64,000 bases of DNA, taken from NCBI GenBank assembly GCA_934254925.1, contig CAKQMD010000001.1, positions 13,266 to 77,265 of the forward strand. The letters run 5' to 3'. Positions 5,190 to 56,617 of this stretch are shown here, piece by piece (the stretch's first letter is position 1; each line of letters begins with the position of its first letter). The notes below the pieces were generated by a model. It saw only the letters and a list, made by a program, of their open reading frames with translations, was not told the origin of the DNA and searched no databases. Both the position numbers and the translations under genes were made by a program. This DNA is from an uncultured Alphaproteobacteria bacterium. Lineage in GTDB: Bacteria; Pseudomonadota; Alphaproteobacteria; RF32; CAG-239.

Positions 5190-7274
5190 GTGAGCAATGC
5201 TATCAGTTTAACCGCGTCAATGCGATCGAATTTGCTGAGCCTGCAACACATTGCGGGACAAGTTGACTTAACCCAAAATCGTCTCTCCACCGGCTTAAAA
5301 ATCAACTCGGCGATCGACAATCCTTCTTCTTATTACATGGCGGTATCCTTGAACAACCGGGCCAGTGATTTGTCGGCTTTGTTAGATTCCATGGTGCAGG
5401 GGATTCAAACAATTAAGGCGGCGACCGAGGGGCTGGAGGCCGGCGCCAATTTGTTGGAACAAGCGGCGGCCACAGCAACGCAGGCCTTAGAAAATGCCTA
5501 TTTCCGCCATAAGTCCTTGGATTATTATCTGACACAAGGCTATCGCGTCATTAATTCCGAAATGAGCAGTGCCGAAATTGAAGCTTTGATGGTTGACGGT
5601 GCTAAACTGGTCTTGGCCGACGATATGGTTTTGGACGCCGGATTGCTCCTGGCCGCTGACAATATCACCATTAACGGCAACGGTCATCGCCTGAGTTATG
5701 GAGGCACGGATGATTTGTTGTCCGTTTCTGGACAGAACACGACAATTACCAATATTAAACTGGATTATATTAACGCTTCCGGAGGAGCGGCAATTGACGT
5801 CACGGGATCGGCAGACGTTTCTTTGATTGAGATTGAAGCCCAGGGTAATAAAGTTTACGGAGTCCATTGCGGCAAAGGCGGCAAAATAACTCTGGACAAC
5901 AGTCTGGGGATTAAGGCCAGCGGTATCGGATCGCATAACTTGGTTAACGGCGACGTTGAACTTTATGACGGCAAAGGCAATACCCAAGCGATTATTGACC
6001 AGATCGGCGAGAATGGTTTGGCGGCGACGGCGGCGCATCAGTTTTATGCCCCGGGAGTTGCCAAAGACGACGCCAATTTCGGTCAGGGCCAATGGTATCT
6101 TCCTTCCATTGGCGAGCTGATGGAGCTTTACGGCACGGATGCCGATGCCATTACCGAAGGTAGCGGAACTTCCGGCGCAATCGGCAACAATAAAAACAAA
6201 ATTAACGAGGCGTTGAGTATTTTAAAAAGACACGCTGCGGCGGAAACACTGCAAAACGAATGGTATTGGTCGTCTTCCGAACATAAGGACGACACTTCTT
6301 TTATCCTTAATATGAGTAACGGTTTCCGCAGTCCCAATACAAAGTCGACCGAAAACGGCAGCGGTCTTCATGTTCGCTGTTTTCAGCTTCTGGAAAATCG
6401 TTTTGATCCGGCTAAAGGCAGTCCGAAAATCGGCGACGTGATGTACTCTGACCTGAGTTATGGCCCCGCCGACGCCTATGACAGCAGCAAAACCGCCGTG
6501 GGAGTGGTGACTTGGATTTCGGAAGACAGAAGATCGGCCAAAATCGTCAATTTAAAAGACCTGCGTTTCAGTTCTCATGATCAGGCGGGAAACTTTAATT
6601 CCGACAAGCCTTATGACGCCTCAGGAAGCATGGTTTCCACCAGCCGCTGGACAACGGCCAACGCCGGAAACACCAATATTACAAACATAACGGATTACGG
6701 TTATTCGCAACTGATGTCTGCCGCGCAATCGGGCGGAAAAATTACGGTCAGCAACACTAATTTGACAATGAATAAGAACGAGGCTTATCTTGTCGGTGCA
6801 ATTTCTTCCTACAATGAAATCCTTGCACAATACGATCTCCTGATCAAAGACAGTTCTTACAAGGGCATTAACCTGTTGCAAGAGCAGGACCTGACCGTGG
6901 TCTTTAACGAAAAACGTTCGGCAAAATTGTCGGTGCAAGGCAAAGACGCCTCCTCTCAAACCTTAGGCTTGACAACGAATGATTGGCAAAATCAAGGCGA
7001 CGTTGCACAGTCTTTAAGCGAGATTGCCGCCGCTCTCAATCAAATCAGCCAAATGTCATCAGAACTTGGAAACTGTTATTCGCTCATCACCACGCGTGAG
7101 GATTTTACGCAGAATTTGATCAATATTTTAACCGAGGGTTCCGATAAGTTGACTCTTGCCGATATGAACGAGGAATCGGCCAATATGCTGGCCCTGCAAA
7201 CACGGCAACAGCTGGCAGTCAATTCGCTGTCCCTCGCCTCGCAGGCCAGCCAGTCGATTTTGAAACTGTTTTGA
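5190..7274 (+). CDS. flagellin-domain protein with large non-canonical central insert (beta-helix-like segment + DUF1566/Lcl-like domain)
   Basis: GTG start with RBS aaaaggag 6 nt upstream. The N-terminus (LQHIAGQVDLTQNRLSTGLKINSAIDNPSSYY...) and C-terminus (ANMLALQTRQQLAVNSLSLASQASQSILKLF) match flagellin D0/D1 helices. The middle ~450 aa carry repeated NITINGNG, TITNIKLDYINASGG and VTGSADVSLIEIEAQGN turns, then the WYLPSIGEL, WYWSSS and VRC motifs of DUF1566. Confidence 0.75.
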   Translation: MSNAISLTASMRSNLLSLQHIAGQVDLTQNRLSTGLKINSAIDNPSSYYMAVSLNNRASDLSALLDSMVQGIQTIKAATEGLEAGANLLEQAAATATQALENAYFRHKSLDYYLTQGYRVINSEMSSAEIEALMVDGAKLVLADDMVLDAGLLLAADNITINGNGHRLSYGGTDDLLSVSGQNTTITNIKLDYINASGGAAIDVTGSADVSLIEIEAQGNKVYGVHCGKGGKITLDNSLGIKASGIGSHNLVNGDVELYDGKGNTQAIIDQIGENGLAATAAHQFYAPGVAKDDANFGQGQWYLPSIGELMELYGTDADAITEGSGTSGAIGNNKNKINEALSILKRHAAAETLQNEWYWSSSEHKDDTSFILNMSNGFRSPNTKSTENGSGLHVRCFQLLENRFDPAKGSPKIGDVMYSDLSYGPADAYDSSKTAVGVVTWISEDRRSAKIVNLKDLRFSSHDQAGNFNSDKPYDASGSMVSTSRWTTANAGNTNITNITDYGYSQLMSAAQSGGKITVSNTNLTMNKNEAYLVGAISSYNEILAQYDLLIKDSSYKGINLLQEQDLTVVFNEKRSAKLSVQGKDASSQTLGLTTNDWQNQGDVAQSLSEIAAALNQISQMSSELGNCYSLITTREDFTQNLINILTEGSDKLTLADMNEESANMLALQTRQQLAVNSLSLASQASQSILKLF

Positions 7275-10486: not shown

Positions 10487-10561
10487 GCCGCTGTAGCTCA
10501 GTGGTAGAGCACGTCATTGGTAATGACGGGGTCGCAAGTCCGATTCTTGCCAGCGGCACCA
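10487..10561 (+). tRNA. tRNA-Thr (anticodon GGT)
   Basis: Cloverleaf folded by eye: acceptor gccgctg/cagcggc, D-arm gctc/gagc, anticodon stem cgtca/tgacg with loop ttGGTaa, T-arm gcaag-tccgatt-cttgc, encoded CCA. Confidence 0.85.
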
Positions 10562-10680
10562 TTTTTGATAACGCACCGTTAAAGGTGCTTTTTTTGTATG
10601 TATTCAAGGCTTTCAATCAGTCCGATTTTGAGAATTTTTAATTTGGCGATTTTTGATGATTTATCGGACTTTTATGTTTT
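10556..10680. repeat. att-like repeat copy A (overlaps tRNA-Thr 3' end) of the tRNA-Thr cassette array
   Basis: gcaccatttttgataacgcaccgttaaaggtgcttttttt ... agtccgattttga ... ttatcggact. Terminator hairpin GCACC-N6-GGTGC plus T-run, and an 8-9 bp inverted repeat agtccgat / atcggact. Confidence 0.75.
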
Positions 10681-10683
10681 TAA

Positions 10684-11241
10684 CTATTTCAAATTATATG
10701 GTGCATCTGATTTATTTTGGACTTCTATTCCTGTCTCAAAACTTTCAACAAACTCCCAATGACCGTTCTCCAATATAAAATGAAAGCAGTGACAATTTTT
10801 TATCCCTTCTACTTTATATCCAGCACACCAACATAATGCGCGGGTAATTCCTCCATGAGAGGCTATAGCAATATTATTAAAAGTGGATGATTTAACTATA
10901 CTTTCAAGAAAAGTTTTGACTCTTTCAAAGGTCTCATTGATACGTTTTTGCGTTTCAGAAGTATCATTATACCAAAAGCCGAAAGCAGCTTCGCACAAAG
11001 CATCATCTGTAATTATATCTATATTACTATATTTTTTAGCAATAATATGAGCTGTATCAACAGCACGTTTTAATGGACTTGAATAAATGACTTCTAAAGA
11101 TTTATCTGACAGAAATTCAGATAATTTTTGAGCTTGTTTTTTCCCTATAGTTGTCAAATTGGCACTAGGCTTTCTTCCTGCAATACCTAGCTTATTACCG
11201 ACGCTTTGTCCATGTCTAAAAAAATAAAAATGTTTTTTCAT
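10684..11241 (-). CDS. histidine phosphatase superfamily (phosphoglycerate-mutase-like) protein, cassette 1
   Basis: The RHGQS catalytic motif (FYFFRHGQSVGN) is near the N-terminus. I prefer the internal start 11241, which has a GGAG RBS. AT-rich (~35% GC) compared with flanking valS. Confidence 0.65.
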   Translation of the reverse strand: MKKHFYFFRHGQSVGNKLGIAGRKPSANLTTIGKKQAQKLSEFLSDKSLEVIYSSPLKRAVDTAHIIAKKYSNIDIITDDALCEAAFGFWYNDTSETQKRINETFERVKTFLESIVKSSTFNNIAIASHGGITRALCWCAGYKVEGIKNCHCFHFILENGHWEFVESFETGIEVQNKSDAPYNLK

Positions 11242-11344
11242 ATTGGTCTCCATATTAAGCATTTATGTTATTGGTTAATTCGTATATTTTTAGTAAATGC
11301 TTTTATTCTAAGGCCTAAATTTACAAACTTATCATTATTTTCAT

Positions 11345-11490
11345 TCCGATAATTGCATAGTATCGCGCACCATTTTTTAGAATGCACCTTTTGAGGTGCT
11401 TTTTTTGTATGTATTTCAAGCTTTTCAGAGAGTCCGATTTTGAGGATTTGGGAATTTGACTATTTGAAATAATTATCGGACTTTTTATGC
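11345..11490. repeat. att-like repeat copy B of the tRNA-Thr cassette array
   Basis: tccgataattgcatagtatcgcgcaccattttttagaatgcaccttttgaggtgcttttttt ... agtccgattttga ... ttatcggact. Mimics the tRNA-Thr T-arm and acceptor 3' half plus the downstream flank. Confidence 0.75.
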
Positions 11491-11504
11491 TATAAGTGCT
11501 ACAA

Positions 11505-11540
11505 TAAAAAACGACCTTAGATGCAAATCCAAGGTCGTTT
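11505..11540 (-). terminator. rho-independent terminator of cassette-2 gene (minus strand)
   Basis: aacgacctt-N12-aaggtcgtt 9-bp stem, followed on the minus strand by tttttt. Confidence 0.5.
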
Positions 11541-11555
11541 CTATGACATATTTCT

Positions 11556-12206
11556 TTACAAATCTCTGAGTAGTTTCTCATAGATTTCTTGTATGCCCTT
11601 CTTCCAGTCACCATATTTTTTGCTGACGACATGTTCACCGGGAAAATTCTGAATCGATATTTTCTCAACATTTGTGGGTCTCCACTCTGCTCTTCTTTCT
11701 TCAAAATCAACTTTGAAGTACAAGAAACAAGCTTTGATATATGCAAGAGTCTTTTTACCACATTGCCGCGTTCTAAGATATTCTTTTTCTGTATGGCAAG
11801 CCATATCTCCTAAATATAGAGGCTGTTTGTGCGCCCAATCATCTACTACGGCAATCAAGGTATTTTGCACTCTGGCTGGCAGATTCAACATCGATAATGG
11901 CAAATAATAAGCCAAAGGATTACCACATTCATCCCTTTCATCATATTTCACCGCAGGCTGAGGAATGCTTTCTCCCTCATGGAAATTAATATCCATTTCC
12001 AACCATAATTCAGATATTTTATCCTTAAATACCTCTTCTTTATACTTGTTGGATGTAACAGATAAAATGATGGTGTTTTTCTGATTTTCCAGAATTACTG
12101 ACGCATTTTTATCGACCTCATGCACAATTTCTTTAATAACACCACACCAAAGTGATTGGCTGTTGCGAGACCACTTTTTAACATAAAATGTAATTTTTGT
12201 TGTCAT
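11556..12206 (-). CDS. hypothetical protein, cassette 2; C-terminal half resembles RNA polymerase alpha-CTD-like helix-hairpin-helix DNA-binding fold
   Basis: 216-aa ORF, AT-rich. The segment LSMLNLPARVQNTLIAVVDD...EKEYLRTRQCGKKTLAYIKA matches the alpha-CTD pattern L.LSVR..N.L......DL....E.L...N.G.KSL.EI by eye. No other recognisable domain. Confidence 0.45.
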   Translation of the reverse strand: MTTKITFYVKKWSRNSQSLWCGVIKEIVHEVDKNASVILENQKNTIILSVTSNKYKEEVFKDKISELWLEMDINFHEGESIPQPAVKYDERDECGNPLAYYLPLSMLNLPARVQNTLIAVVDDWAHKQPLYLGDMACHTEKEYLRTRQCGKKTLAYIKACFLYFKVDFEERRAEWRPTNVEKISIQNFPGEHVVSKKYGDWKKGIQEIYEKLLRDL

Positions 12207-12397
12207 AATTTTTTATTTTTATTGTTAATATTTCAAAAATAAAAAGCACTACTGAAACAAAGATTGATTACTCAATAATTGGACAAAATAATACTTTTTG
12301 ATGATAATGATATATCATATTTTTATAGTCACCGCAAGCACTATTTTGGACGAAATATTGTTATTTTCACTATAAACTTAAATTCTTCTTGAGAAAT

Positions 12398-12590
12398 TCA
12401 ATTTTCCTACTCAAAAGCTTAAACTCATCATGGTTTTTAGTCCGATAATTGCATAGCATCTCGCACCATTTTTGATAATGCACCCGTTGAGGTGCTTTTT
12501 TTGTATATATTCCAAGGCTTGCAAAGAGTCCGATTTTAGATGTTTTTAATTTGAAGATTTTTGTAACCTTATCGGACTTTTTATTTTTTT
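12398..12590. repeat. att-like repeat copy C (full-length unit with 5' module) of the tRNA-Thr cassette array
   Basis: caattttcctactcaaaagcttaaactcatcatggtttttagtccgataattgcatagcatctcgcaccatttttgataatgcacccgttgaggtgcttttttt ... agtccgattttaga ... ttatcggact. Confidence 0.75.
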
Positions 12591-12662
12591 TATTTACTTT
12601 ATTTTCATTTGAATATATAAGATTGAGTGTGAATTTATAATTTTGTTTAACAATATAAAAGT

Positions 12663-13259
12663 ATGATTATGGAGATAAATTTTATTACTTCCAATAAAGG
12701 AAAGATAGCGGCTTTGAAGCGTTTTTTAGCTAATGACGGGCGTTTGGATATTAAAGTTAATCAAGTTCAGGTGGAAATTATTGAACCTCAACTCAATAAT
12801 ATTGCGGATGTTTCAAAATATAAAGCCTTGGAGGCTTTTAAAATATTAAAAAAGCCCGTACTTGTTGAAGACGGAGGCCTGGTTATTGAGGCTTTAGATG
12901 GTTTTCCCGGACCATATACTAAATATGTTTTATCAACAATTGGGGTTGATGGCATACTTAGATTAATGCACGGAGAAAATAATCGAGGCGCAAAATTTGT
13001 TAGCTTTGCAACTTTTGTCGAACAAGACGGAACCATACGCCAATTTGAAAGATTTGGTGATAATTTTGAAATTTCCAATGAGCGAAAACCTATCATTCAT
13101 CCTGAAGCATGGTCTGATTTGTGGCAAGTGATGTATATGAAAAATTATGGAAAAATGCTTTGCGAGTTTTCAAAACAAGAAATTATTGACCATACTGAAA
13201 AATCGCAAACTTCAGGAAGTTTGCAACAATTTGCAAAGTGGTTTATGGAAAAATATTAA
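12663..13259 (+). CDS. Ham1/RdgB-family non-canonical purine NTP pyrophosphatase-like protein, cassette 3
   Basis: The N-terminal ITSNKGKIAALK and the VEDGGLVIEALDGFPGPYTKY segment match the ITPase motifs (SN.GK..E ... EDSGL.vdAL.G.PG.YS). 198 aa, AT-rich. Confidence 0.65.
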   Translation: MIMEINFITSNKGKIAALKRFLANDGRLDIKVNQVQVEIIEPQLNNIADVSKYKALEAFKILKKPVLVEDGGLVIEALDGFPGPYTKYVLSTIGVDGILRLMHGENNRGAKFVSFATFVEQDGTIRQFERFGDNFEISNERKPIIHPEAWSDLWQVMYMKNYGKMLCEFSKQEIIDHTEKSQTSGSLQQFAKWFMEKY

Positions 13260-13316
13260 GGATTATCTTTTATAGGCTGGGTATAAACGCTCAGCCTTAA
13301 TTTATTTTAGATATTT

Positions 13317-13703: not shown

Positions 13704-14597
13704 TCATAATTCGTTTTTGTTCGGCATTGCGGGGGCGGCGCCTTTGCGCGTGACACAGATTGAAGCAGCCTTATTGGCCTTTCGGACGCTTTCCCGCAGC
13801 GTTTTGCCCTGCACGAGTTCGGAGGCAATGACACCGGCAAAACAATCCCCGGCACCTACCGTATCAATGGCACAGACTTTGCAGGCTTTTTCAAAATATA
13901 CGTTATCGGCAGCGACTAAAGCGCCTTTGCTTCCCAAGGTCACAATGACGGCTTGGGAAGGACGAAGCTTTATTTGCTCAGCAGCAGCGGCGACCTCTGC
14001 CAAGGGAGTCTCAGCGGTTATACCCTTGCCTTTGATGAAAGCAAGTTCGGCCTCATTTACGATCAAAACATCCACCACGGACAAAAGTTCGTCCGGAATC
14101 GGCTGAATTGGCGAAGGATTGAGTATTGTCCTTGCGCCGACGGCTTTGGCTTTTGTAAACAACGCCAAAATCGTTGCTATGGGGATTTCAAACTGACTTA
14201 TGACAACATCGTCTTGCCCGAGGCTTATGGCCGAAACGTCATCACTTTTTAAATCGCTATTGCTTCCGGCTACCACGACTATCGTATTTTGGCCATTATC
14301 GGCCACATTAACAAATGCCGTTCCGGATTCTTTGTCGCTTCTTTTAATATAATCCGTTCCAATATTGTGGCGTTTTATAAAATCTTGCAAAATATCGGCG
14401 AAGCTGTCATTGCCCAATCTGCCGACCAAAATCGTTTCAACGCCCATTTTGGCCGCGGCGACAGCTTGATTCAGCCCTTTTCCCCCGGGCAGGTATTCCA
14501 CCGATTTGCCGTGAATTGTCGCGCCCGTCTCCGGCAGATTTTCCACCCTGGCAATCACGTCCATATTAATGCTCCCTGCCACCACAACTTTGCCCAT
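13704..14597 (-). CDS. rbsK: ribokinase (PfkB family)
   Basis: GGKGLNQAVAA and the DTVGAGDCFAG ribokinase signature. I prefer the start at 14597 (MGKVVVAGSINMDV), which has a GAGGAG RBS. The longer track ORF to 14660 is probably an upstream extension. Confidence 0.85.
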   Translation of the reverse strand: MGKVVVAGSINMDVIARVENLPETGATIHGKSVEYLPGGKGLNQAVAAAKMGVETILVGRLGNDSFADILQDFIKRHNIGTDYIKRSDKESGTAFVNVADNGQNTIVVVAGSNSDLKSDDVSAISLGQDDVVISQFEIPIATILALFTKAKAVGARTILNPSPIQPIPDELLSVVDVLIVNEAELAFIKGKGITAETPLAEVAAAAEQIKLRPSQAVIVTLGSKGALVAADNVYFEKACKVCAIDTVGAGDCFAGVIASELVQGKTLRESVRKANKAASICVTRKGAAPAMPNKNEL

Positions 14598-14703
14598 CGC
14601 CCTTCTCCTCAATATTGACATTATTTTAAGATTTTTTCTTAAAATTTCAATCTTTCTCATAAGTCAGACAAGCCGCATTCATTATGGCGGCTCAGCAACG
14701 AAG

Positions 14704-15081
14704 CTATTTGTAGACCCAAAACTTTTGCAAAGGAAAAGAAAACAGCGGAATTGTCAGGACAATGACCAAAACCGTCGCCCAATAGGGCCAGAGCATTTTG
14801 ACGCCGGCCCAGGTCAGAGCTTCGCTGTACAAAAACATCAGCAGGCTCAACAGTAGATATTTGCCAAACATGCCCGTATTGCCGCGTCTCAAACAAAAGG
14901 TGACGCGCATTTGCCCAAAATATCCGGCGACAATGCTGCAACCATATCCCACCAATGTCGAACTTAAGGCCTCACCGCTGAAAAAATAAGCTAGGTTTGC
15001 CGCCAACAAATACACCAGACTGGCCAGGCCGCCGATTATCAGATATTTTACGATTTGTCGTTTAAACAAGCCGTTCATCAT
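14704..15081 (-). CDS. GtrA-family small polytopic membrane protein (lipid-linked sugar translocation)
   Basis: 125 aa with 4 TM helices and a KYLIIGGLASLVYLL-type N-terminus typical of GtrA. Its start overlaps the upstream gene (ATGA). Confidence 0.55.
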   Translation of the reverse strand: MMNGLFKRQIVKYLIIGGLASLVYLLAANLAYFFSGEALSSTLVGYGCSIVAGYFGQMRVTFCLRRGNTGMFGKYLLLSLLMFLYSEALTWAGVKMLWPYWATVLVIVLTIPLFSFPLQKFWVYK

Positions 15082-17669
15082 TTCTTGAACTCTTGCAGAT
15101 AAAAGAACAAGGCAAAGTCGTGCCAGGCATGCGGCCGGTTATGATCCCCCCAAGTCAGAGGATATACCTGCGACGAAATGTCGGGAATGCGATAACTCGG
15201 AGCATTAAGGGCGTCATAATGGGCCATGTCCACCTTAAGGTAGGGATAAAAATCACTCTTGGGCGCAAAAGGCATAAAGTTCGGCGCGCGAGAAGCCTTA
15301 AACAGTTTTCGGGCCTGTCTGGCATATTCTACCCGCGAGGCAAAGCGGGGCTCGGACAGTTCCGCATTCTTGGGCTTGTCGGCAAACCACAACAACCGGT
15401 AATAATCCAGCCTGTCAGAAGGACAATTGCCAAACTGCGCGGCCAGGTCTTCGCGTCCGTATTCCTTCAGGGCAAACTGCAACCATCGGGTCTGATACAG
15501 ATTTTGCGGCTGACCGTCCGTCAGTCCTTGCAGGCAACCGTCAACGGCAATGCGTTTGGCTTCGGCCACGGCACGGTTGACTGTCATTCGGTTCGGCGTT
15601 TCGAGCAGACTGTTGAGATAGACGATTTGCCCCAGGTTGTCGGGTTCATGAGGATTTCTGATTCCGTCATAAACGGCGGTGCGCGTTTTGATCCAATCGG
15701 AAATCAGATCGACCTGCCCCGTTTGTTTTAAGAAATAGCCGATCAAAGCGCTGTCGCGATACCAGACATCGTTCGGACGGGAATGATATTCGTGCAAACG
15801 CGAGTACACCTTGCCGTCAATAACGGAAAACATAATTTCCTGATACAAGATTTTCAGAAGGTCGGGGTATTCATATTCGCTGAAATCAGGCAGGTTCATC
15901 GGCAAAGAGGTACCGGGAACATATTTCTTGTTTTGTTCCTCATCGGTGTACCATACGCCGGTTTCGTCTTCGACGATTTCCGTCCGGTCGCCGTTTTCAA
16001 AAACCAGGCGAACCTTGTAGAGATGAGGCAGAACGGTTGCGTATTTTATGTCGGCGAATTTTTTAACGACTTCTCCGGTCTTGAAATCCTCCAGCCGATC
16101 ATTTCTGAAAACGATTTTCCGGCGGTTGCCGAGCCCGAAATAGTAAAGGTTGTCTGTCAGTTTTTCCAGGTTAGCGTTTTGAAAAACCATCAGATTGAGA
16201 TGCCGATTACGGTGTGCTCGCAGCAACGTCTTTTTCAAGTTGATCAGGTCGGGATCTTCCATTTGGCTGCGGGAGGCATGGCGGTTGTCAAAGACAAAAT
16301 TGTCCGCAACTTTGAGTTCCGAGGCAACCAAAAAGGTTAAATATCCGGTCAAAACCACGAGCAAAAGCAAAATCCCCCAGTAAAGCTTTTGCCACACGCC
16401 TTTAAGACTGTCCGCGCTCAGGACGAACAACGAAGCGATGAAGAGGTTGTAAGACGGCGAATATAATTCCTGTTCATGGGCGCCATAAAGGCTGTGAAGA
16501 ATAAACAAAAAGGCCAGGCCGCCGAAAAGAGCATAAACATCGGCCAATTTGAACCATTTGGAAAGGGAAAACAGCAAAGGCAGCAACAAAAGATAGGCCC
16601 ACAAGACTTGTTTGGGCAAATCGGACAAATGAGTGTCTTCTCCCCAAAGCTGCAGGAAAAAGTTTCGTACATAAAGCAGAATGCCGTTTTGATTCGGAAC
16701 GTTAACGGAATGAGGTTCCTCGACCATGATTTCCCTTATCATCCAAGCGAGGTCCGCTTGTGTGTATCCCGGGTACATGTGGTGCTGCCAAGACAAAAGC
16801 AGGCTGATCGACAGCAAAAACAGCAGTCCGAGCTTTAGGCAAAAAACGGCGGCCTGTCCAAAAGTCAGTTTATTTTGCCGATACAGCAGCACAAACAAAA
16901 TAAACAGGCAAATACCGTACAAGACGATATTGGTAATCGTGGTGGAAAAAGCCACAAGAGCCAGCAGCAGCTGTGGCAACAGATTCAGACGAGGATTTCG
17001 ATATAAGCGGGAAAAACAAAGCAAGGTTATCAGAATCGTCGTTTGCGAAAAGATGAACGTTTCGATAATCAGTGCCGCATGCAAAACTTCGGAAAAACTG
17101 ACGGTAAGAAGCAAAGTTCCCAACAAGACGGTCGTTCGGGAAGCAACAAACTCCCGCAGCCAGAGATAAAACAGGCTCATGTTAAAAGCGGCAACAAAGA
17201 CGGTAAAGACATGCAGATGGCCATAATCGGCATTGAGAGGCATGGTCAGATGAACCAGCGACTGCCACAAGATTATGAAAAAGGGATGCACCTTGATGCG
17301 GTAATGGTTGGCATCGGGCATCAAGAGGTCATCGGCGACGCGGAGCTGGTCCGTTCCGTAATAAAAATCCATGACCGGCGCCACACTAAACCTGGTGCTG
17401 CAAAGGTTGAAAACAAACAAAGACAGTAGGAAAACAGCTGCGGCAATCAGAGCATCCCACCGGTTGAAACGGTTGACAAGCTTGCCCCCCAAACCACTCT
17501 GGTACAACCAGTAAAGAAATAAAAAAGGCAGAGGATTCAAAATCAGGCCGCTGATTTTATAAACCAAGCAGCCGGCAGCCAAAAACAAAAAAACAAGCAA
17601 GACTTTAAGATCAGGCAAAGCCGGCCAATTAAAAGAAGGCAAATTTTTCAGACGGGGCAAAAGGGACAT
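15078..17669 (-). CDS. large polytopic membrane protein with C-terminal soluble domain; candidate GT-C-type glycosyltransferase
   Basis: 863 aa. The N-terminal ~480 aa is very hydrophobic with at least 12 predicted TM helices. The C-terminal ~380 aa is a globular domain. The only basis for the call is its position between the UbiA-type phosphoribosyltransferase and GtrA genes. Confidence 0.4.
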   Translation of the reverse strand: MSLLPRLKNLPSFNWPALPDLKVLLVFLFLAAGCLVYKISGLILNPLPFLFLYWLYQSGLGGKLVNRFNRWDALIAAAVFLLSLFVFNLCSTRFSVAPVMDFYYGTDQLRVADDLLMPDANHYRIKVHPFFIILWQSLVHLTMPLNADYGHLHVFTVFVAAFNMSLFYLWLREFVASRTTVLLGTLLLTVSFSEVLHAALIIETFIFSQTTILITLLCFSRLYRNPRLNLLPQLLLALVAFSTTITNIVLYGICLFILFVLLYRQNKLTFGQAAVFCLKLGLLFLLSISLLLSWQHHMYPGYTQADLAWMIREIMVEEPHSVNVPNQNGILLYVRNFFLQLWGEDTHLSDLPKQVLWAYLLLLPLLFSLSKWFKLADVYALFGGLAFLFILHSLYGAHEQELYSPSYNLFIASLFVLSADSLKGVWQKLYWGILLLLVVLTGYLTFLVASELKVADNFVFDNRHASRSQMEDPDLINLKKTLLRAHRNRHLNLMVFQNANLEKLTDNLYYFGLGNRRKIVFRNDRLEDFKTGEVVKKFADIKYATVLPHLYKVRLVFENGDRTEIVEDETGVWYTDEEQNKKYVPGTSLPMNLPDFSEYEYPDLLKILYQEIMFSVIDGKVYSRLHEYHSRPNDVWYRDSALIGYFLKQTGQVDLISDWIKTRTAVYDGIRNPHEPDNLGQIVYLNSLLETPNRMTVNRAVAEAKRIAVDGCLQGLTDGQPQNLYQTRWLQFALKEYGREDLAAQFGNCPSDRLDYYRLLWFADKPKNAELSEPRFASRVEYARQARKLFKASRAPNFMPFAPKSDFYPYLKVDMAHYDALNAPSYRIPDISSQVYPLTWGDHNRPHAWHDFALFFYLQEFKK

Positions 17670-17682
17670 GACGAACTCCGGA

Positions 17683-18558
17683 TTAAATTATTTTTACAAA
17701 AATCAAAAAGACATAGATCAAATAAGCTAGGCAGGTCAAAAACAGCGGCTTGTCGCGGTACAGGTTTTCCGTCGGGTCTTCTTCCGACGAAGGGGCGGTA
17801 ATGATATTCAGATAATGAAAAATTCCGTAGACGACAAAAACAACGCTATAGATCATCCGGTTGGTCTCAAAACGTTCCAACGTCGCCGCCTCCAAGGTAT
17901 AAAGCGCATAACTCATAATCGTGAGAGCAGCGGTAATCAGCGCATAGGCTTTCAGCCCTTCCAGCGAATAAAGCTGCAGGACTTGTCTGGTCTCCTTGTG
18001 CTTGGCGGCTTCCGACAAGCGTTTGGAAAAACCGAGGAACAAGCTTAGAAACAGCGTCGTCATGAAGATATAGCTCGAGACGGGAACACCGATGGCATAA
18101 GCCCCGGCATAAACCCGCAGAATAAAACCGGCGGCGATGACAAAGACATCCAAAATCGCAATATGTTTCAGCCGCCAGGAATATAAAATATTGACCGCGA
18201 CATAGGCCGCCAAGACCAACAACAACTTAAAACGCTGATCCACCGGAGCAAAACAAGAGACGGCCAAAGCCAAAAGCAACAACAAAAAAGCGACCAAACG
18301 AGCGGAAAGAACCGAAATTCGTCCGGCGGGCAAAGGCCGCAGCCTTTTGCGCGGATGCGCCTTGTCGGCCTCCATGTCGGCAATGTCATTGTTGATATAA
18401 ATGAAAGACGCGGCCAGACAAAACGCAACAAAGGCCGAAACCGCCTGCAAGACGGCTGCGGCCTCCAAAAACTTAAAAGAGAAAAACAACGGCGCCAGCA
18501 CAAAAACGTTTTTTACATATTGTTTGACGCGCAGTAGGCGAAGTAAATCTTTAACCAT
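17683..18558 (-). CDS. UbiA-family polyprenyl-phosphate 5-phosphoribosyltransferase (DPPR-synthase-like)
   Basis: 291-aa membrane protein with YINNDIADMEADKAHPRKRLRPLPAG, i.e. the NDxxDxxxD motif followed by the basic P-loop-like stretch characteristic of decaprenyl-phosphate phosphoribosyltransferase (Rv3806c family). Confidence 0.65.
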   Translation of the reverse strand: MVKDLLRLLRVKQYVKNVFVLAPLFFSFKFLEAAAVLQAVSAFVAFCLAASFIYINNDIADMEADKAHPRKRLRPLPAGRISVLSARLVAFLLLLLALAVSCFAPVDQRFKLLLVLAAYVAVNILYSWRLKHIAILDVFVIAAGFILRVYAGAYAIGVPVSSYIFMTTLFLSLFLGFSKRLSEAAKHKETRQVLQLYSLEGLKAYALITAALTIMSYALYTLEAATLERFETNRMIYSVVFVVYGIFHYLNIITAPSSEEDPTENLYRDKPLFLTCLAYLIYVFLIFVKII

Positions 18559-19039
18559 GAAAATATCCTAAAAAGGAGATGAAATACAACACGACAGCGG
18601 CATAAACGCCGGCGAAAACGTCATCAAGCATGACGCCCCAAGCATTGGTCAGCTTGCTGTCTGCCCATTTGGCCGGGCCAAGTTTGAAGATATCAAAAAA
18701 ACGAAAAAGAAAAAAGCCGATCAGATAAAGTTCCCAATGCGTCATCTGACCGACCAAAAGAGGTGTCACCAGGCTAAACGTCAAAAGCTGCCCGACGGCC
18801 TCGTCAATCACAACGATTGAAGGATCCTTGTTTTTAGAGGCGTCAATCACCTGAGCCGTGGCCCAAACGCCGACAAAAAATACACCGACGGCCAAAAGCA
18901 GCAGTCCCGGCAAGCCGTAAAAATAAATGACGGCCGCGGCAAAAGGCAACGTTCCGAAAGAGCCGGCCGTCCCCGAAGCGAAGGGAAAATAACCAACGCC
19001 GAGGCAAGAAGCCAAAATATATCCCAATTTTCTTTTCAT
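18551..19039 (-). CDS. phosphatidylglycerophosphatase A family (PgpA-like) lipid phosphatase
   Basis: 162 aa, MKRKLGYILASCLGVGYFPFASGTAGSFGTLPF... PgpA N-terminal signature. Overlaps the UbiA-like gene by 8 nt (operon). Confidence 0.65.
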   Translation of the reverse strand: MKRKLGYILASCLGVGYFPFASGTAGSFGTLPFAAAVIYFYGLPGLLLLAVGVFFVGVWATAQVIDASKNKDPSIVVIDEAVGQLLTFSLVTPLLVGQMTHWELYLIGFFLFRFFDIFKLGPAKWADSKLTNAWGVMLDDVFAGVYAAVVLYFISFLGYFHG

Positions 19040-19363
19040 TTGTTTCCCTCAGATCTCAAAACAAGCTTATGTGAGGTATAACAAATGTCTTTGTTTTGTC
19101 AACAATTCCTTACAGAAGGCGCTGTTAATTTTGTCTTATTTTCGCATTTATCATAAGAAAAAACAACGATAAGGCCATGAACAATTTCCTGTTTTGGTTG
19201 TGTATAAATTCTCGTTCTCTTTTGGCGTCGTTCGGACATCTCCGTCAGATATAAGCTTACATTTTGGCTTTTGTCGTTTAGAATAGTTTTATGTTTCATC
19301 TTTAATTACAAACGCTAGTTTGGCAACGTACAACAGGCGTCATGACCATAAGAGGAGGTTTCC

Positions 19364-19927
19364 ATGTCTAACAAAGCAAAAATTCTCGCCTTGGCCGGTG
19401 TTCTCCCACTCGGCATACCTAACGCTCCGGCCTCTTCGGGGGAAAATGATGCCGCTCAGGCCTTGGTCTCCCCTTCTGCACAAAAAGTAACGACCAATTG
19501 TGGTTCCCTAAGTTACAGCTTCGGAAAAAACGGGGTGGCGTATGAGGGCGGCCTTTCGGGCGTACGAACTTCCCAGCTGATGCCGAAAATGTATGACAAC
19601 TCCGACGGCAGCATTGGCTGCGGACCTTTGTCTTCCTATGACGAGGGGGCGTTGCTGCAATGGTCCGAAGGTCAACTGCAGCAGGTTGTCACAGAAGAGG
19701 TGATTGCCCGTCACCTAAAGCAAAGTAAGGTCAAACTCTCTCAAGAAGAGCAAGCATTTTTGTCGGCTCACCAACAGGACATGAAAGCCTGGGGACTGCG
19801 TTCGACCGTTTCGCCGGAGGGCAATATGACCCTCTCGCAGGATGATCCGATGAATAGCGGAAAAATCAGCATAACACTCAATAATTATGCCCATCCTCTG
19901 ACTTTCCAACGGGGGACTTCCCGCTAG
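19364..19927 (+). CDS. secreted hypothetical protein
   Basis: N-terminal signal peptide (MSNKAKILALAGVLPLGIPNAPASS). Two Cys pairs. No recognisable domain. Confidence 0.45.
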   Translation: MSNKAKILALAGVLPLGIPNAPASSGENDAAQALVSPSAQKVTTNCGSLSYSFGKNGVAYEGGLSGVRTSQLMPKMYDNSDGSIGCGPLSSYDEGALLQWSEGQLQQVVTEEVIARHLKQSKVKLSQEEQAFLSAHQQDMKAWGLRSTVSPEGNMTLSQDDPMNSGKISITLNNYAHPLTFQRGTSR

Positions 19928-20022: not shown

Positions 20023-21150
20023 TTATTTTTCCTTCTCGACCAAAATCAGCGGGATCAACATTTCCTGTTCGCTGATGCCGGCATGTTCGGCTTTCAAAAC
20101 AGGAAAAACTTTTTCTCCTGTCGAATAGCGCAGAGACTTGTCCGTGAGCGCCACCGCCACAAAATCTCCCAGAAATTCAGAAACCAAAGGATGCCTTTCG
20201 CCGCTGCCCAGCAAACCGCTTTCCATAAATTCGCGGCGTGTATACAAACGGAAATCCGAAGCCAAAACTTTATTGAACTCGGCGACAAAATTTTCATGAC
20301 AGCCTTCTTTTACCCAAAAAGTCGTGAAACGTGCCTCCAAAGCCGGCGGACGCAGCAGACAGCCGCACAGTCCGGGGTAATCGTTCAGATAGATTTCCTC
20401 TATGTCAAGCTCGCCGTGATCAGCGGAGACAATCAGCAAAGTATCCTGCATTCCGTCGCAGAGCCTTTGCAGATTGGCATCAATGTCGTTGAGAATCTCT
20501 TTGATCAGCGGCGCCGTCGTTCCTTGACGATGCACGGAATGATCCGGTTCGGTCCAATAAGCACAAAACAATTTTTCCCGGTTATTTCTCCGGGAAAGGG
20601 AAAGGATTTTATCGCACATTTCGGCAAAACTGCCGACACCGTTCTTTTCAAAAGGCGGAAACACTTTGTGAAATTCCACTTCGGGACAATGGGCCACAAT
20701 TTTTTCATAAATTGTTTCATATTTCAAAACATCCGTCGCCGGCGGCGGGGTCGACAGCGCCTTGCCGCTGTAAAAAGCGGTGTTTCTGAAAGTTTCGATG
20801 ATTTCATCATATTGTTTGTAATAGCTGGTCCAGCCCAACCAACCGCTCTCCCAGGGAGATTTGCCCGAATGGTAAGCCGTGGTCGCAGCCGTGGTTGTCG
20901 GCGGAAAGACGGAGAAGATCGGCATGGCAACATGTTGCCGAATGAAACTTGACGACGGAAGATTTTTGGCAATCAGGTCCATCCCCATACCGTCCAAAAT
21001 CAGCAAAACGACGTTCTGACGGCGGCGGCTCAATTTTTCATCCAGAAACGGCAAGCTCGGATGCAGTGTCGGGAGCCCATAGTATCGCAGTAAGGAATTG
21101 CTCACCGACAAGATGCTGCGATCATAGTCGAAGTCAAACAGATTTTTCAT
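20023..21150 (-). CDS. alkaline-phosphatase superfamily protein (type I phosphodiesterase / nucleotide pyrophosphatase-like)
   Basis: VVLLILDGMGMD metal-ligand motif near the N-terminus and a SADHGE-type motif (LLIVSADHGELD). Confidence 0.6.
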   Translation of the reverse strand: MKNLFDFDYDRSILSVSNSLLRYYGLPTLHPSLPFLDEKLSRRRQNVVLLILDGMGMDLIAKNLPSSSFIRQHVAMPIFSVFPPTTTAATTAYHSGKSPWESGWLGWTSYYKQYDEIIETFRNTAFYSGKALSTPPPATDVLKYETIYEKIVAHCPEVEFHKVFPPFEKNGVGSFAEMCDKILSLSRRNNREKLFCAYWTEPDHSVHRQGTTAPLIKEILNDIDANLQRLCDGMQDTLLIVSADHGELDIEEIYLNDYPGLCGCLLRPPALEARFTTFWVKEGCHENFVAEFNKVLASDFRLYTRREFMESGLLGSGERHPLVSEFLGDFVAVALTDKSLRYSTGEKVFPVLKAEHAGISEQEMLIPLILVEKEK

Positions 21151-48483: not shown

Positions 48484-48942
48484 TTACCTAACTTGCTTTT
48501 CACTGTTTATGGTATCCAAAGCGCCTGAAAAACCGCTGATAATCTGCTGATCTGCCTTAAATTTGGCTTTTTTCCTGAGATTATTGTTTTCCAGATAATT
48601 GGTCTTCATCATATGGTCCATATCATCATAGCCTTCTTTAATCAGACGGTTTTGTGCCGCCAGGGCCGAACCGCTGCCGACAATCCCCATGCCGCCGAAA
48701 GCAGCCCGACGCGACGCCAGTTGCTGATCCAACAGGTTATTGCGCTTCTTCATATTATAAGCCGTTTGGGCATTGTTCATGCTCATCTGCCGGCGTGCGG
48801 CCTTTTTGGTTTGGTTGGCCTTATAGAAGCTGTTAAACAGATCTATTCCCATGCCGGCTTGTTTTCCGGTAGCCATTCCCATAACTGTCGAACCTATACC
48901 TCCCATTTTATTTCTCCTTTCAATTTTTAATTTTAACTTCAC
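48484..48942 (-). CDS. phage-like hypothetical protein (Gly/Met/Asn-rich; possible gp13-like virion protein)
   Basis: 152 aa. Immediately downstream of the gp12-like gene, as gp13 is in T7. No motif. Confidence 0.4.
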   Translation of the reverse strand: MKLKLKIERRNKMGGIGSTVMGMATGKQAGMGIDLFNSFYKANQTKKAARRQMSMNNAQTAYNMKKRNNLLDQQLASRRAAFGGMGIVGSGSALAAQNRLIKEGYDDMDHMMKTNYLENNNLRKKAKFKADQQIISGFSGALDTINSEKQVR

Positions 48943-50827: not shown

Positions 50828-51444
50828 TGTCTCGCCTCCACCAGGGTAAAGTCTTCAAACTTGCGCGGCGTGGCCTGCTGGGCATCAATCAAACGAGCCT
50901 GAGTGATGGCATCTTCCGCCAAACGCGACAGAAAATCCGCCCGCGTCGTGCTTTCGGTCAGAGGAATGCAGAACTCTGCGGCCAATCGTGCCATCAGTGC
51001 CTCAACGAAAAATGCGGGAAAAGTGTCTACATGCGGCCGAAAGATATAAGTGATGGTTACATGTTCGGCATTGGTATGCATTTTGTTTTCAAAAATGCGG
51101 TATTCCAGACCGCTGCCGCGTCCGGCATTGCCTGCCGAGATGATCCGCAAAAAATCATATGGCAGAGCATAAGCGTATTTGAAATCCGCCAAAGGCCTGC
51201 TTTCCAATCTGGCCAAAGTTTTTTGACCGACGGCAAAACTCCAGGGATAAGAAGAAAGCAACGCATCCCTAATCTGGGGATAGAGGTTCGCCGCCACTTC
51301 GGCTTCGGCCGTTCCGTCTTCAAAAGACGTCAGGGGCGAAGCGCCGATTTTGATTAAAGCGTTTGAACATAAATTCACATCTGTTATTGTCATTATTTTT
51401 CTCCATTTAAAAAGGATGGCGGCAACCGCCGGGGCTGCCGCCAT
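50824..51444 (-). CDS. tail tubular protein A-like (T7 gp11-like) adaptor/gatekeeper
   Basis: The N-terminus ALIKIGASPLTSFEDGTAEAEVAANLYPQIRDALLSSYPWSF aligns by eye with T7 gp11 [42 protein letters not shown]. 206 aa vs 196 aa. Confidence 0.6.
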   Translation of the reverse strand: MAAAPAVAAILFKWRKIMTITDVNLCSNALIKIGASPLTSFEDGTAEAEVAANLYPQIRDALLSSYPWSFAVGQKTLARLESRPLADFKYAYALPYDFLRIISAGNAGRGSGLEYRIFENKMHTNAEHVTITYIFRPHVDTFPAFFVEALMARLAAEFCIPLTESTTRADFLSRLAEDAITQARLIDAQQATPRKFEDFTLVEARQ

Positions 51445-51487
51445 ATCACTTTTGCTAATAGGTATTTAAAATTTATATTCGGGAAGG

Positions 51488-51754
51488 TTATTCAGTATCC
51501 GCAGCCGGACCTGCCACCTGGGAAACACTCACCGTACCTTCGGCATTGGCAGAAACTACCAAAATGGCCGTTTCCAACGTGCTGGAAGTGGAGGCGTTGA
51601 CCAAAATCATGTCACCGACACGGACAAAGGGCGCCGTCTCGTTGAAATATTTAGCGGTCTTGACCGTTTCCAAAGTATCGGTCGTTGAATAGTTCCACAG
51701 CGTGAAGCCGTTGGCATAGGCCAGAACACTGAAAGATTTGGTATCGTAAGACAT
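51488..51754 (-). CDS. hypothetical small protein between capsid and gp11-like genes
   Basis: 88-aa ORF, Thr/Ser/Ala-rich. No motif. Confidence 0.3.
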   Translation of the reverse strand: MSYDTKSFSVLAYANGFTLWNYSTTDTLETVKTAKYFNETAPFVRVGDMILVNASTSSTLETAILVVSANAEGTVSVSQVAGPAADTE

Positions 51755-51785
51755 ATTCTTATCCTTTCATAATATAAATTAAAAA

Positions 51786-52625: not shown

Positions 52626-52651
52626 TTAAAGTTTTGAGTTAAAATTTTTTA

Positions 52652-53341: not shown

Positions 53342-53355
53342 TTATTTCTTTCCTT

Positions 53356-55331: not shown

Positions 55332-55354
55332 TTTCTTTTCCTTTCTTGTTTAGG

Positions 55355-55891: not shown

Positions 55892-55895
55892 CGTT

Positions 55896-56605: not shown

Positions 56606-56617
56606 AAAAATCCTTTT

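Follow-up and report, generated by a model that had tools for sequence, protein, structure and literature searches.

A putative PPPRS-type pentofuranosylation cassette combining a predicted GT-C-fold protein with a glucoamylase-like periplasmic domain

Pentofuranoses are absent from animals, and the pathways that produce them are drug and vaccine targets (in tuberculosis, DprE1 and the Emb proteins). Among the closest described systems to the locus reported here is that of Citrobacter youngae O1/O2, ORF15-ORF14-ORF12, where a PPPRS, a flippase and a GT-C enzyme were shown in 2024 to add alpha-Ribf extracytoplasmically without an epimerase (Kelly et al., 2024; PMC11127046). The three-component systems for Ribf, Xylf and Araf addition described in that year also showed that such pathways reach well beyond the Corynebacterineae (PMC11127046). 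In Pseudomonas aeruginosa, the arabinan of group IV pilin (D-arabinofuranosylation; PsPA7_6245–6249 and TfpW) is made by a phosphatase, a DPPRS, a GtrA-like protein and a GT-C enzyme (bioRxiv 10.1101/2020.04.19.049825). A third point of comparison is the mycobacterial decaprenyl-P-arabinose pathway, comprising Rv3806c, Rv3807c, Rv3789, DprE1/E2 and the Emb/Aft GT-C enzymes.

Within the 64-kb window (the whole stretch of DNA that was analysed), which comes from an uncultured alphaproteobacterium, a pgpA-like gene, a UbiA-like gene, a gene for an 863-aa membrane protein and a gtrA-like gene lie in this order, followed by rbsK (Table 1). It is probable that the first four make up a cassette that adds a pentofuranose, outside the cytoplasm, to a glycan or glycoprotein of the cell envelope, a view supported by their tight packing: the end of pgpA and the start of ubiA share 8 nt, 13 nt separate ubiA from the 863-aa gene, and the stop of the latter overlaps the gtrA start by 4 nt. 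Kelly et al. (2024; PMC11127046) had already reported a system of this kind, and the locus is a variant of it rather than a new pathway; no current concept is overturned. The ORF list of the window bears out the positions of the five minus-strand ORFs given in a preliminary description of this DNA, which had also called them co-directional and all overlapping; they are co-directional, but only two of the four junctions overlap. The region upstream of pgpA, which presumably holds the cassette promoter, is shared with a divergent ORF (19364–19927), and a search of it for a minus-strand sigma-70 consensus gave no match.

Table 1. Positions of the genes, domains and sites described in the text, numbered within the window.
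Feature	Position	Strand	Basis or remark
Ribokinase gene rbsK	13704..14597 (public call start 14621; longest ORF to 14660)	-	TIGR02152, PfkB
Promoter-like site TTGAAA-16-TAAAAT	14623..14650	-	10/12 consensus match in the gtrA-rbsK gap; a consensus match only, the total of such sites in the region not exceeding the shuffle expectation
gtrA-like gene, 125 aa, small membrane protein	14704..15081	-	Pfam PF04138
C-terminal periplasmic domain of 863-aa protein, aa 451-863	15078..16319	-	Predicted fold
N-terminal membrane domain of 863-aa protein, aa 1-450	16320..17669	-	13 TM helices, predicted GT-C fold
Codon of D107, candidate catalytic base	17349..17351	-	First periplasmic loop, GT-C core
UbiA-like gene, PPPRS/DPPRS-type, 291 aa	17683..18558	-	Pfam, NCBIfam and PDB matches, motif
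pgpA-like gene, 162 aa	18551..19039	-	Pfam PF04608; phosphatidylglycerophosphatase-A family membrane phosphatase
Intergenic region upstream of pgpA	19040..19363	.	324 bp, 36% G+C

The likeness to the C. youngae system extends to a UbiA-family PPPRS whose catalytic motif is the same, a step that calls for a phosphatase, a small membrane protein as candidate flippase, and a transferase of GT-C fold that carries an additional periplasmic domain at its C-terminus; in both, an epimerase is not needed when the sugar stays Ribf. However, the C. youngae phosphatase is a fused HAD PRP domain and its flippase candidate is MATE/ArnEF-like, whereas the window has a PgpA-family candidate and GtrA. The C-terminal domains differ too, that of C. 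youngae being a beta-rich CBM of ~150 aa and that of the window a predicted glucoamylase-like (alpha/alpha)6 domain of ~410 aa. With P. aeruginosa the locus shares the set of phosphatase, DPPRS homologue, GtrA-like protein and GT-C protein, but the DprE1/DprE2, Rv3807c-like phosphatase and pilA genes of that cluster are missing from the window cassette, and TfpW has no glucoamylase-like domain. The mycobacterial pathway differs in having an epimerase, a phosphatase of another family, a battery of GT-C enzymes instead of a single one, and a different accessory domain.

The UbiA-like protein contains YINNDIADMEADKAHPRKRLRP and matched the UbiA-fold prenyltransferase domain PF01040 (1.6e-20, 73.9 bits, cutoff 34.2). 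Against NCBIfam it matched the DPPR synthase model NF008977 at 2e-63, its 214.5 bits lying just under the equivalog cutoff of 234, and NF008978 at 1.2e-59, while all other prenyltransferase models (MenA/UbiA/CyoE/chlorophyll synthases) were at <=1e-13. Its match to the Mtb DPPRS structure (PDB 8j8j) was 1.1e-29, with the next prenyltransferase at 2.7e-6. The catalytic residues N57, D58, D61 and D65, which align with NDVRDVEAD of 8j8j, and K179, R180 and E183 are invariant in seven cassette-linked UbiA proteins; the loop-II NDxxDxxxD and loop-IV R/E residues are essential in Mtb DPPRS and in ORF15 (PMC11127046). By its sequence, then, the enzyme belongs to the DPPRS/PPPRS clade and not to the quinone prenyltransferases, and the DPPR-synthase type proposed in the preliminary description, against which a grouping with the MenA/UbiA quinone enzymes would have spoken, is upheld. 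The enzyme very probably moves ribose-5-phosphate from PRPP onto polyprenyl phosphate at the cytoplasmic face; since the organism is Gram-negative, the lipid is presumably undecaprenyl-P, as opposed to the mycobacterial decaprenyl-P.

Removal of the 5-phosphate would follow, the weakest step of the proposed pathway, for which the translationally coupled PgpA is a candidate. The pgpA-like product matched PF04608 (6.6e-37, 127 bits, cutoff 28) and scored 79 against the E. coli-type equivalog NF008288 (cutoff 226). It is 63–66% identical to the stand-alone PgpA of cassette-less alphaproteobacterial MAGs (L094–L098) but only 48% identical to the cassette-linked copy of locus L010, so its similarity follows the organism and not the cassette, and the gene is taken to be the organism's ordinary pgpA. 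A dedicated pentofuranose-pathway paralogue was rejected on the same grounds. The order PgpA-UbiA-GT-C recurs in L002 and L010, where the upstream flanks differ, and pgpA is absent upstream of the cassette of the closest homologue (L001); this absence, together with the orthology to housekeeping pgpA, suggests that the adjacency may be historical, not functional. The phosphatase role assigned to this gene in the preliminary description is weakened: the gene is translationally coupled to ubiA, but it is not dedicated to the pathway. PgpA is a plausible candidate for the 5-phosphatase acting on polyprenyl-P-ribose-5-P because PGP, the normal PgpA substrate, is likewise a lipid-phosphodiester-polyol-phosphate. 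As a speculative side claim, the housekeeping PgpA could moonlight here as a third, independent solution to 5-phosphate removal, after PAP2 and HAD. The step appears to move freely among genes: besides PgpA next door, a HAD phosphatase takes the place of PgpA in other lineages as a separate gene (L004), as a HAD::UbiA fusion with the domain order of C. youngae ORF15 beside relatives of the window GT-C protein (L007/L008), or fused to the GT-C protein itself (P0026, P0032, P0049, P0067 and P0078).

The GtrA-like protein matched the four-helix membrane domain PF04138 (1.1e-12, 48.7 bits, cutoff 26.1), in line with its earlier inclusion in the gene set, and parallels Rv3789 of M. tuberculosis and PsPA7_6247 of P. 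aeruginosa (bioRxiv 10.1101/2020.04.19.049825). By analogy it is a candidate flippase or hub for the polyprenyl-P-pentofuranose, and may aid the movement of polyprenyl-P-ribofuranose to the periplasmic face. A gtrA gene occupies the same position in L002, and GtrA or SMR/EamA-like genes were found in seven of the 25 UbiA-linked loci.

No match to Pfam or NCBIfam was obtained for the 863-aa protein (ORF 15078–17669, minus strand). Topology prediction gave 13 TM helices with an N-in/C-out orientation, in agreement with the positive-inside rule, and a C-terminal domain of 413 aa, so that the earlier estimate of ~12 TM helices and a 380-aa soluble C-domain was roughly right. The predicted structure of the membrane domain is similar to those of solved GT-C enzymes, and this assignment combines the predicted structure with ~10% identity to them. 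Together with the C-out topology, this supports the earlier suspicion of a GT-C fold joined to a large C-domain in the periplasm. All of the conserved polar residues are placed on the predicted periplasmic side: D107, R110, R124 and H128, together with P129, in the loop at aa 95–148, the first of the GT-C core to face the periplasm, and likewise E203, H392 and Y395. The D107 loop follows TM3, the counterpart of TM1 in shorter homologues (core TM1). Of 75 full-length family members, 91% have Asp at the position of D107, which is comparable to that of the catalytic Asp of GT-C enzymes, for example D31 of ORF12 (PMC11127046), making D107 a candidate catalytic base. The GT-C domain, which has its fold modelled in silico and carries these conserved polar residues facing the periplasm, would probably pass the pentofuranose to an acceptor.

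Eight of 40 family members matched DUF6080 (PF19558) over the N-terminal TM region, the best at 7.7e-12 (P0019), and P0051 matched it too, with matches spanning only the first half of the model; the 863-aa protein itself did not reach E 0.1. DUF6080 consists of uncharacterised bacterial integral membrane proteins with no assigned function, so this relation adds no functional information. No EpsG match was found among the 40 members at E<=1, and DUF6044, a different GT-C-like partner in L012, was likewise unrelated by hhalign. In contrast, ORF12 (CAZy GT136) is annotated as EpsG-family (SI of PMC11127046). The locus and roughly 35 relatives add a second putative GT-C family that pairs with PPPRS, set apart from ORF12 by annotation and domain architecture and predicted to carry a periplasmic glucoamylase-like domain. 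If confirmed, this would mean a new GT family for CAZy, possibly a new GH-like family, and bioinformatic markers from which the pentofuranose decorations of uncultured bacteria could be predicted.

The C-domain is predicted to consist of a beta-sandwich (about 490–600) followed by an (alpha/alpha)6-type barrel (about 600–863), a glucoamylase/GH15-like fold. With this predicted fold it is not a carbohydrate-binding module of the Emb/AftD type, something that the preliminary description was in no position to see. Structural matches are to GH15, GH65 and GH125 of clan GH-L, at only ~11% identity; neither a match to Pfam GH15 nor a profile match to PDB sequences was found, and membership of GH15 or clan GH-L by sequence, with two catalytic carboxylates, was not seen. 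A conserved polar pocket is formed by R516, K518, E567, E611, R638, D639, D668, E675, D677, N678, D718, Y725, W761, H817, W849 and E853. To our knowledge, a glucoamylase-like domain is without precedent on characterised GT-C enzymes, and we know of no GH15, GH65 or GH125 member fused to a GT-C membrane domain.

The glucoamylase-like domain would bind, or possibly process, the acceptor glycan. A bifunctional protein, with pentofuranose transfer by the GT-C domain and a C-domain that trims or remodels the same glycan as an active hydrolase or transglycosylase instead of binding it passively, is a less likely possibility. It draws on the likeness to clan GH-L enzymes, on the invariance of the thirteen pocket residues from E611 to E853, also in stand-alone secreted relatives, on the signal or lipoprotein peptides of the stand-alone versions, on the fusion of some relatives to GH127, and on a 'WYRD' motif which we take to resemble the GH15 substrate-binding motif 'WxRD'. 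However, no GH family or solved structure matches the C-domain in sequence, the clade of the 863-aa protein has Gly-Asp where the family-wide 'YPL(S/T)WE' motif has its Glu, so that a catalytic pair is not assignable, and the extra domains of known GT-C enzymes are, as far as we know, binding modules. That the 863-aa protein founds an unclassified DUF6080-related GT-C family, a dedicated PPPRS partner in many phyla, and at the same time carries a catalytically active glucoamylase-like domain is a doubtful combination; if true, it would be the first fusion of a GT-C with a glycosidase (or transglycosylase), and the stand-alone secreted relatives, roughly 600 in all, would be a new family of furanoside-active enzymes.

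About 640 distant relatives were found. Among the 35 loci holding a full-length family member, the window included, 25 have a PPPRS-type UbiA gene within 5 kb, as do 11 of the 14 in which both flanks are at least 1.5 kb; a HAD phosphatase, separate or fused to UbiA or the GT-C protein, often accompanies it. This pairing recurs in alphaproteobacteria, spirochaetes and human-gut, rumen-type and sediment metagenomes, and the large GT-C protein is consistently encoded near PPPRS-type UbiA genes. A polyprenyl-phosphate-linked sugar as its donor is indirectly supported by these neighbours. The lack of a family annotation for the 863-aa protein and the ordinary character of pgpA could also suit a coincidental neighbourhood, in which UbiA would prenylate some unrelated small molecule, pgpA would serve housekeeping only and the large membrane protein would not be a transferase; set against the pairing in 25 loci, the phosphatase fusions to either partner and the DPPRS-specific motif of UbiA, this is highly improbable.

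The other recurrent neighbours are surface-glycan genes (GT8, Acyl_transf_3, GtrII and PMT_2). An acceptor protein such as flagellin or pilin, with the GT-C protein acting as an O-pentofuranosyl or oligosaccharyl transferase like TfpW of P. aeruginosa, is improbable, as no pilin or flagellin gene adjoins the cassette in any related locus, GT8, GT2, Acyl_transf_3 and GtrII are polysaccharide-type neighbours, and the carbohydrate-enzyme-like C-domain points toward a glycan ligand. The most likely product of the cassette is a lipid-linked sugar of ribose type, which would be flipped over the inner membrane and joined to a surface glycan.

As the preliminary description had stated for DprE1/E2-like epimerases, no DprE1-like or SDR-like gene was found in the 64-kb window, nor was one found in the loci of the close relatives (L001, L002 and L010). 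With no epimerase nearby, ribofuranose is the default sugar. The earlier view of retained ribofuranose as an unusual surface modification is out of date, given the epimerase-free alpha-Ribf addition shown in 2024 (PMC11127046). It is unlikely, though conceivable, that epimerases of the DprE1/DprE2 or SDR type, encoded outside the window, turn polyprenyl-P-Ribf into the Araf or Xylf form ahead of the transfer. SDR-like genes do lie near the UbiA/GT-C pair in L056 and L060–L062, the phage-like contig L012 carries UbiA-HAD-SMR-SDR, fusions to GH127 beta-L-arabinofuranosidase domains occur within the family, and ORF12 accepts both Ribf and Xylf donors; in the characterised systems, however, the epimerase genes are within the same cluster (PMC11127046).

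The rbsK product matched TIGR02152 at 1.8e-83 (280.3 bits, equivalog cutoff 299.65) and PfkB at 3.8e-60. The preliminary description had coupled this ribokinase to the cassette in one operon, with ribose converted to R5P and PRPP. This coupling appears weak, and a five-gene functional unit in which a co-transcribed ribokinase is dedicated to turning salvaged ribose into PRPP is quite unlikely. The logic is metabolically sound, rbsK is co-directional with gtrA and lies close downstream of it (43 nt from the longest ORF, 82 nt from the public gene call start or 106 nt from ATG 14597), and no terminator-like site was found between them. On the other hand, this is the sole junction without tight coupling and holds a promoter-like site, none of the 34 other family loci has rbsK as a neighbour, the close relatives L001 and L002 among them, and R5P can be obtained from the pentose-phosphate pathway, with rpiB present in the window. 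It is probably an independent neighbour and no conserved cassette member, which could at most feed the PRPP pool. Its likely start is ATG 14597, which is preceded by an SD-like GAGGAG and at which the PfkB domain begins. It should also be noted that all five genes resemble the surrounding chromosome in G+C and GC3.

The cassette described in the preliminary description as a pentofuranose glycosylation system was found to be real and its core interpretation correct, with the general mechanism being probable. It represents a new version of an already known type of system and not a new pathway. The five minus-strand ORFs lie exactly at the coordinates first reported (see table), with the UbiA-like ORF containing YINNDIADMEADKAHPRKRLRP. 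The families of four were confirmed with Pfam and NCBIfam, while the 863-aa protein had zero matches to either library. The junctions of the first four genes are, in order, an 8-nt overlap, a 13-nt gap and a 4-nt overlap, and this tight packing does not extend to rbsK. All five genes have a G+C content of 47–50%. Horizontal acquisition of the cassette was rejected because both G+C and GC3 match the flanking chromosome and because a low-G+C island, situated further downstream, excludes rbsK. This island directly follows a tRNA-Thr gene and looks like a small integrated element. A contig from a second assembly of the same organism stops approximately 360 bp past rbsK, at the island edge.

Features of the window and of loci of relatives (L-numbers)
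Sequence	Position	Strand	Feature	Match or remark
Window	5190–7274	+	Flagellin, 694 aa	Ordinary N- and C-terminal flagellin domains
Window	10487–10561		tRNA-Thr	
Window	10600–13300		Low-G+C island	G+C 32–36% versus 48%; GC3 0.21–0.35
Window	10684–11262		His_Phos_1 phosphatase	Island
Window	11556–12206		Orphan ORF, 216 aa	Island
Window	12663–13259		Ham1-like NTP pyrophosphatase	Island
Window	13704–14660	-	rbsK, longest ORF	PfkB 3.8e-60; ribokinase TIGR02152 1.8e-83
Window	14704–15081	-	gtrA-like ORF	Pfam GtrA 1.1e-12
Window	15078–17669	-	863-aa ORF	
Window	17683–18558	-	UbiA-like ORF	Pfam UbiA 1.6e-20
Window	18551–19039	-	pgpA-like ORF	Pfam PgpA 6.6e-37
Window	19364–19927	+	ORF, 187 aa	Signal-peptide-like N-terminus; no family match
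Window	20023–21150	-	Protein, 375 aa	Type I phosphodiesterase / nucleotide pyrophosphatase family
Window	48500–58200		Block of T7-like podovirus structural genes	
Window	48920–50827		Nozzle protein	Podovirus block
Window	51786–52625		Capsid protein	Podovirus block
Window	52652–53341		T7-type scaffold protein	Podovirus block
Window	53567–55165		Portal protein	Podovirus block
Window	56618–58123		ORF, 501 aa	Podovirus block; unannotated
L001	3752–5569		GT8::GT2 fusion, 605 aa	After GT-C gene, 4-nt overlap
L010	2077–5516		PgpA-UbiA-GT-C cassette	
L012	898–5419		UbiA(PPPRS)-HAD-SMR/EamA-SDR epimerase-DUF6044 string	
L039	7815–9008		C-domain	
L046	554–1759		C-domain	
L057	7836–9032		C-domain	
L057, L059	7836–10257		C-domain and membrane domain, separate adjacent genes	Reversed order

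Sequence comparisons place the UbiA-like protein with the decaprenyl-phosphate phosphoribosyltransferases (DPPRS). It matched the NCBIfam models NF008977 (2e-63; 214.5 bits, slightly below the 234-bit equivalog cutoff) and NF008978 (1.2e-59), with all models of quinone, haem and chlorophyll prenyltransferases at 1e-13 or worse. Against solved structures, the best match was the Mycobacterium tuberculosis DPPRS (8j8j, 1.1e-29), followed by a prenyltransferase at 2.7e-6. Residues N57, D58, D61 and D65 together with K179, R180 and E183 are invariant across seven cassette-linked UbiA homologues. They are the counterparts of the loop-II and loop-IV residues mutated in ORF15 of Citrobacter youngae (Kelly et al., 2024; PMC11127046). 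These three lines of evidence bear out the proposed membership of the DPPR-synthase clade and not of the MenA/UbiA quinone prenyltransferases.

A word-indexed search of 5.8 billion proteins with the 863-aa protein returned only three clusters (100, 53, and 39% identity), all on alphaproteobacterium-like MAG or metagenome contigs. An exhaustive HMMER search with the alignment of these three returned 643 cluster representatives with an E-value of 1e-3 or less, of which 144 reached 1e-30 or less; many are full-length (800–1070 aa), and many others, of 250–450 aa, match only residues ~505–860. A scan of genome contigs found nothing with the three-sequence alignment and only two MAG loci with an 8-sequence alignment; an 85-sequence alignment was too diverse for deriving search patterns. 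Searched as profiles against PDB sequences, the whole protein and its C-domain gave chance matches only, and the window protein matched none of the Pfam GT-C families. Among 40 relatives, eight matched DUF6080 over the membrane region (best 7.7e-12) and one showed a weak TMEM260-like match there.

The AF2 model from the three-sequence alignment (pLDDT 49.8) was unusable and was superseded by one built with 85 family members (pLDDT 90.9, pTM 0.89). The list given for the 863-aa protein comprises ALG12 (24.0), Pmt4 (21.3), the arabinofuranosyltransferase AftB (19.8), ArnT (17.5), PglB (16.6), AftA (15.5) and AftD (14.7). The model helices predict 13 TM segments with an N-in/C-out topology consistent with the positive-inside rule. 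In this topology the polar residues conserved over 75 full-length members, namely D107 (91%), R110 (84%), R124 (81%), H128 (91%), P129 (93%), E203 (89%), H392 (87%) and Y395 (92%), would all face the periplasm. D107 falls within the long loop that follows TM3, and as TM3 is the first helix in shorter homologues, this residue is a candidate for the canonical GT-C catalytic-acid position. As far as fold prediction tells, the protein thus appears to be a glycosyltransferase and not a membrane protein of another kind. The literature searches turned up no account of this GT-C family, of DUF6080 or of the C-domain, and this undescribed family with its enzyme-like periplasmic domain, together with its wide pairing with PPPRS genes, is the chief interest of the cassette.

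The C-domain is an autonomous family without a Pfam model (L018–L092), with stand-alone forms of 330–450 aa that occur frequently in metagenomes from sediment, soil and gut. Relatives carrying a source name are all called "hypothetical protein". Among 62 stand-alone ORFs from fetched metagenome loci, many have signal-peptide-like or lipoprotein-like N-termini. Fused and stand-alone forms have in common a dense set of polar and aromatic residues that vary little or not at all (R516, K518, E567, E611, R638, D639, D668, E675, D677, N678, D718, Y725, W761, H817, W849, and E853). The clade of the window protein has Gly-Asp where the family-wide YPL(S/T)WE motif has its Glu. No sequence-level link to GH15/GH65/GH125-type glucoamylase-like enzymes, or to any other entry of PDB or Pfam, was detected. 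In at least one representative (P0065) the domain lies behind a GH127 beta-L-arabinofuranosidase module, GH127 domains being present in 3/40 family members. It is unlike the accessory domains of Emb, AftD and ORF12, which are of the CBM type. Judging from the model, this glucoamylase-like, enzyme-like domain may serve in glycan binding or cleavage. In L057 and L059 a lipoprotein-signal C-domain gene precedes a separate membrane-domain gene, with an Acyl_transf_3 gene but no UbiA nearby; this arrangement suggests that the membrane domain and the C-domain are able to function without being fused.

To examine genomic association, loci of close and distant relatives were fetched and their six-frame ORFs scored with HMMs from the cassette proteins. 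A PPPRS-type UbiA gene was present within 5 kb, mostly directly adjoining, in 25 of the 35 loci holding a full-length (membrane plus C-domain) member, and in 11 of the 14 whose flanks both extend 1.5 kb or more. Loci without UbiA were mostly truncated contigs. UbiA was also absent near the stand-alone C-domain in about 50 loci with that form only. This co-occurrence is the strongest evidence that the GT-C family consumes the PPPRS product, and so wide a partnership was previously unremarked. A phosphatase is also present in 13 of these 25 UbiA-linked loci, either as a separate HAD gene (e.g., L004), as PgpA (window, L002, L010) or as a HAD::UbiA fusion (L007/L008), which is the architecture of ORF15. 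In several members (P0026, P0032, P0049, P0067, P0078) a HAD domain is fused to the GT-C N-terminus. A small membrane protein of the GtrA or SMR/EamA-like type is encoded at seven loci, and further recurring neighbours are surface-polysaccharide genes: GT8 (often with DUF4422), Acyl_transf_3, GtrII and PMT_2. Fourteen related loci carry GT8 genes, whose products may assemble the acceptor glycan. In the closest relative (L001, 53% identity) a GT8::GT2 fusion gene takes the place of gtrA behind the GT-C gene. In L010 (Alphaproteobacteria MAG RE-23may17-523, 29% G+C) the UbiA and GT-C genes are each broken into two or three ORFs; the cause would be decay of a reduced genome or frameshifts introduced by assembly.

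The coupling of ribokinase to the operon was the least supported part of the original proposal, since rbsK adjoins the cassette only in the window among the 35 loci and is separated from gtrA by a gap with a promoter-like TTGAAA-16-TAAAAT site. This gap measures 43 nt from the longest ORF, 82 nt from the public gene call or 106 nt from ATG 14597, where the PfkB domain starts and which has GAGGAG just 5' of it. In close relatives the cassette ends at the GT8::GT2 gene (L001) or a convergent gene (L002). It is therefore unlikely that rbsK belongs to the functional unit.

The window, L002 and L010, which differ in what lies upstream, all have pgpA translationally coupled to ubiA. This pattern speaks for a functional link, and as a substrate PGP is a chemical analogue of polyprenyl-P-ribose-5-P. 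A specialised paralogue was rejected: the nearest PgpA proteins outside the cassette clade (63–66% identity) are products of stand-alone genes that neighbour adhE and ppa in MAGs having neither UbiA nor GT-C close by, and the cassette-linked PgpA of L010 is just 48% identical. As L001 also has no pgpA upstream of its cassette and about 1,560 homologues were found at E<=1e-10, the window PgpA is considered the organism's ordinary orthologue, possibly co-opted. The chances that it performs the 5-dephosphorylation are about even.

Kelly et al. (2024; PMC11127046) showed that Citrobacter O antigens receive alpha-Ribf in the periplasm through the action of three components: a PPPRS fused to a HAD phosphatase, a small flippase and the GT-C on which family GT136 was founded. 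Xylf or Araf arise via optional epimerases, and candidate systems are widespread. The Pseudomonas aeruginosa pilin system has an Rv3807c-like phosphatase, a DPPRS homologue, a GtrA-like protein, DprE1/E2 and the GT-C TfpW (bioRxiv 10.1101/2020.04.19.049825). By analogy, the window cassette would work like both. However, its phosphatase candidate is of the PgpA family instead of a fused HAD or Rv3807c-like protein, it has GtrA in place of MATE/SMR, and its GT-C has no detectable relation to ORF12, annotated as EpsG-family in the supplementary information of Kelly et al. (PMC11127046). The glucoamylase-like periplasmic domain also sets it apart. Kelly et al. (2024) was the only relevant paper that literature searches on DUF6080, GT136 follow-ups and DPPRS in Alphaproteobacteria brought up.

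Another pentofuranose-addition cassette is found in L012 (MT837543.1, "Bacteriophage sp.", human faeces), ending in a DUF6044 gene (565 aa, 2.4e-103) of a further candidate GT-C-like family. The GT-C family profile showed no similarity to this protein, which is not a valid stand-in for GT136 as ORF12 is annotated as EpsG-family.

The reported lack of a DprE1/E2-like epimerase was confirmed, with no DprE1-like or SDR-like gene found in the 64-kb window. All its ORFs of at least 400 aa were assigned to other families except the 501-aa ORF of the phage region, which lacks a FAD domain, and screening for SDRs by motif and with phmmer found none. Epimerase genes were likewise not found at the loci of close relatives; an SDR-like gene lies near the cassette in some distant ones (L056, L060–62). 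Ribf is therefore the default prediction for the sugar delivered, held at even odds.

The unusually long flagellin of the window has a large central insert that weakly matches the Lcl C-terminal domain. It might be a substrate for glycosylation, but no connection with the cassette was seen. Divergent from the cassette lies the 187-aa ORF, adjoining the phosphodiesterase family gene. It should also be noted that the podovirus block is a prophage or remnant.
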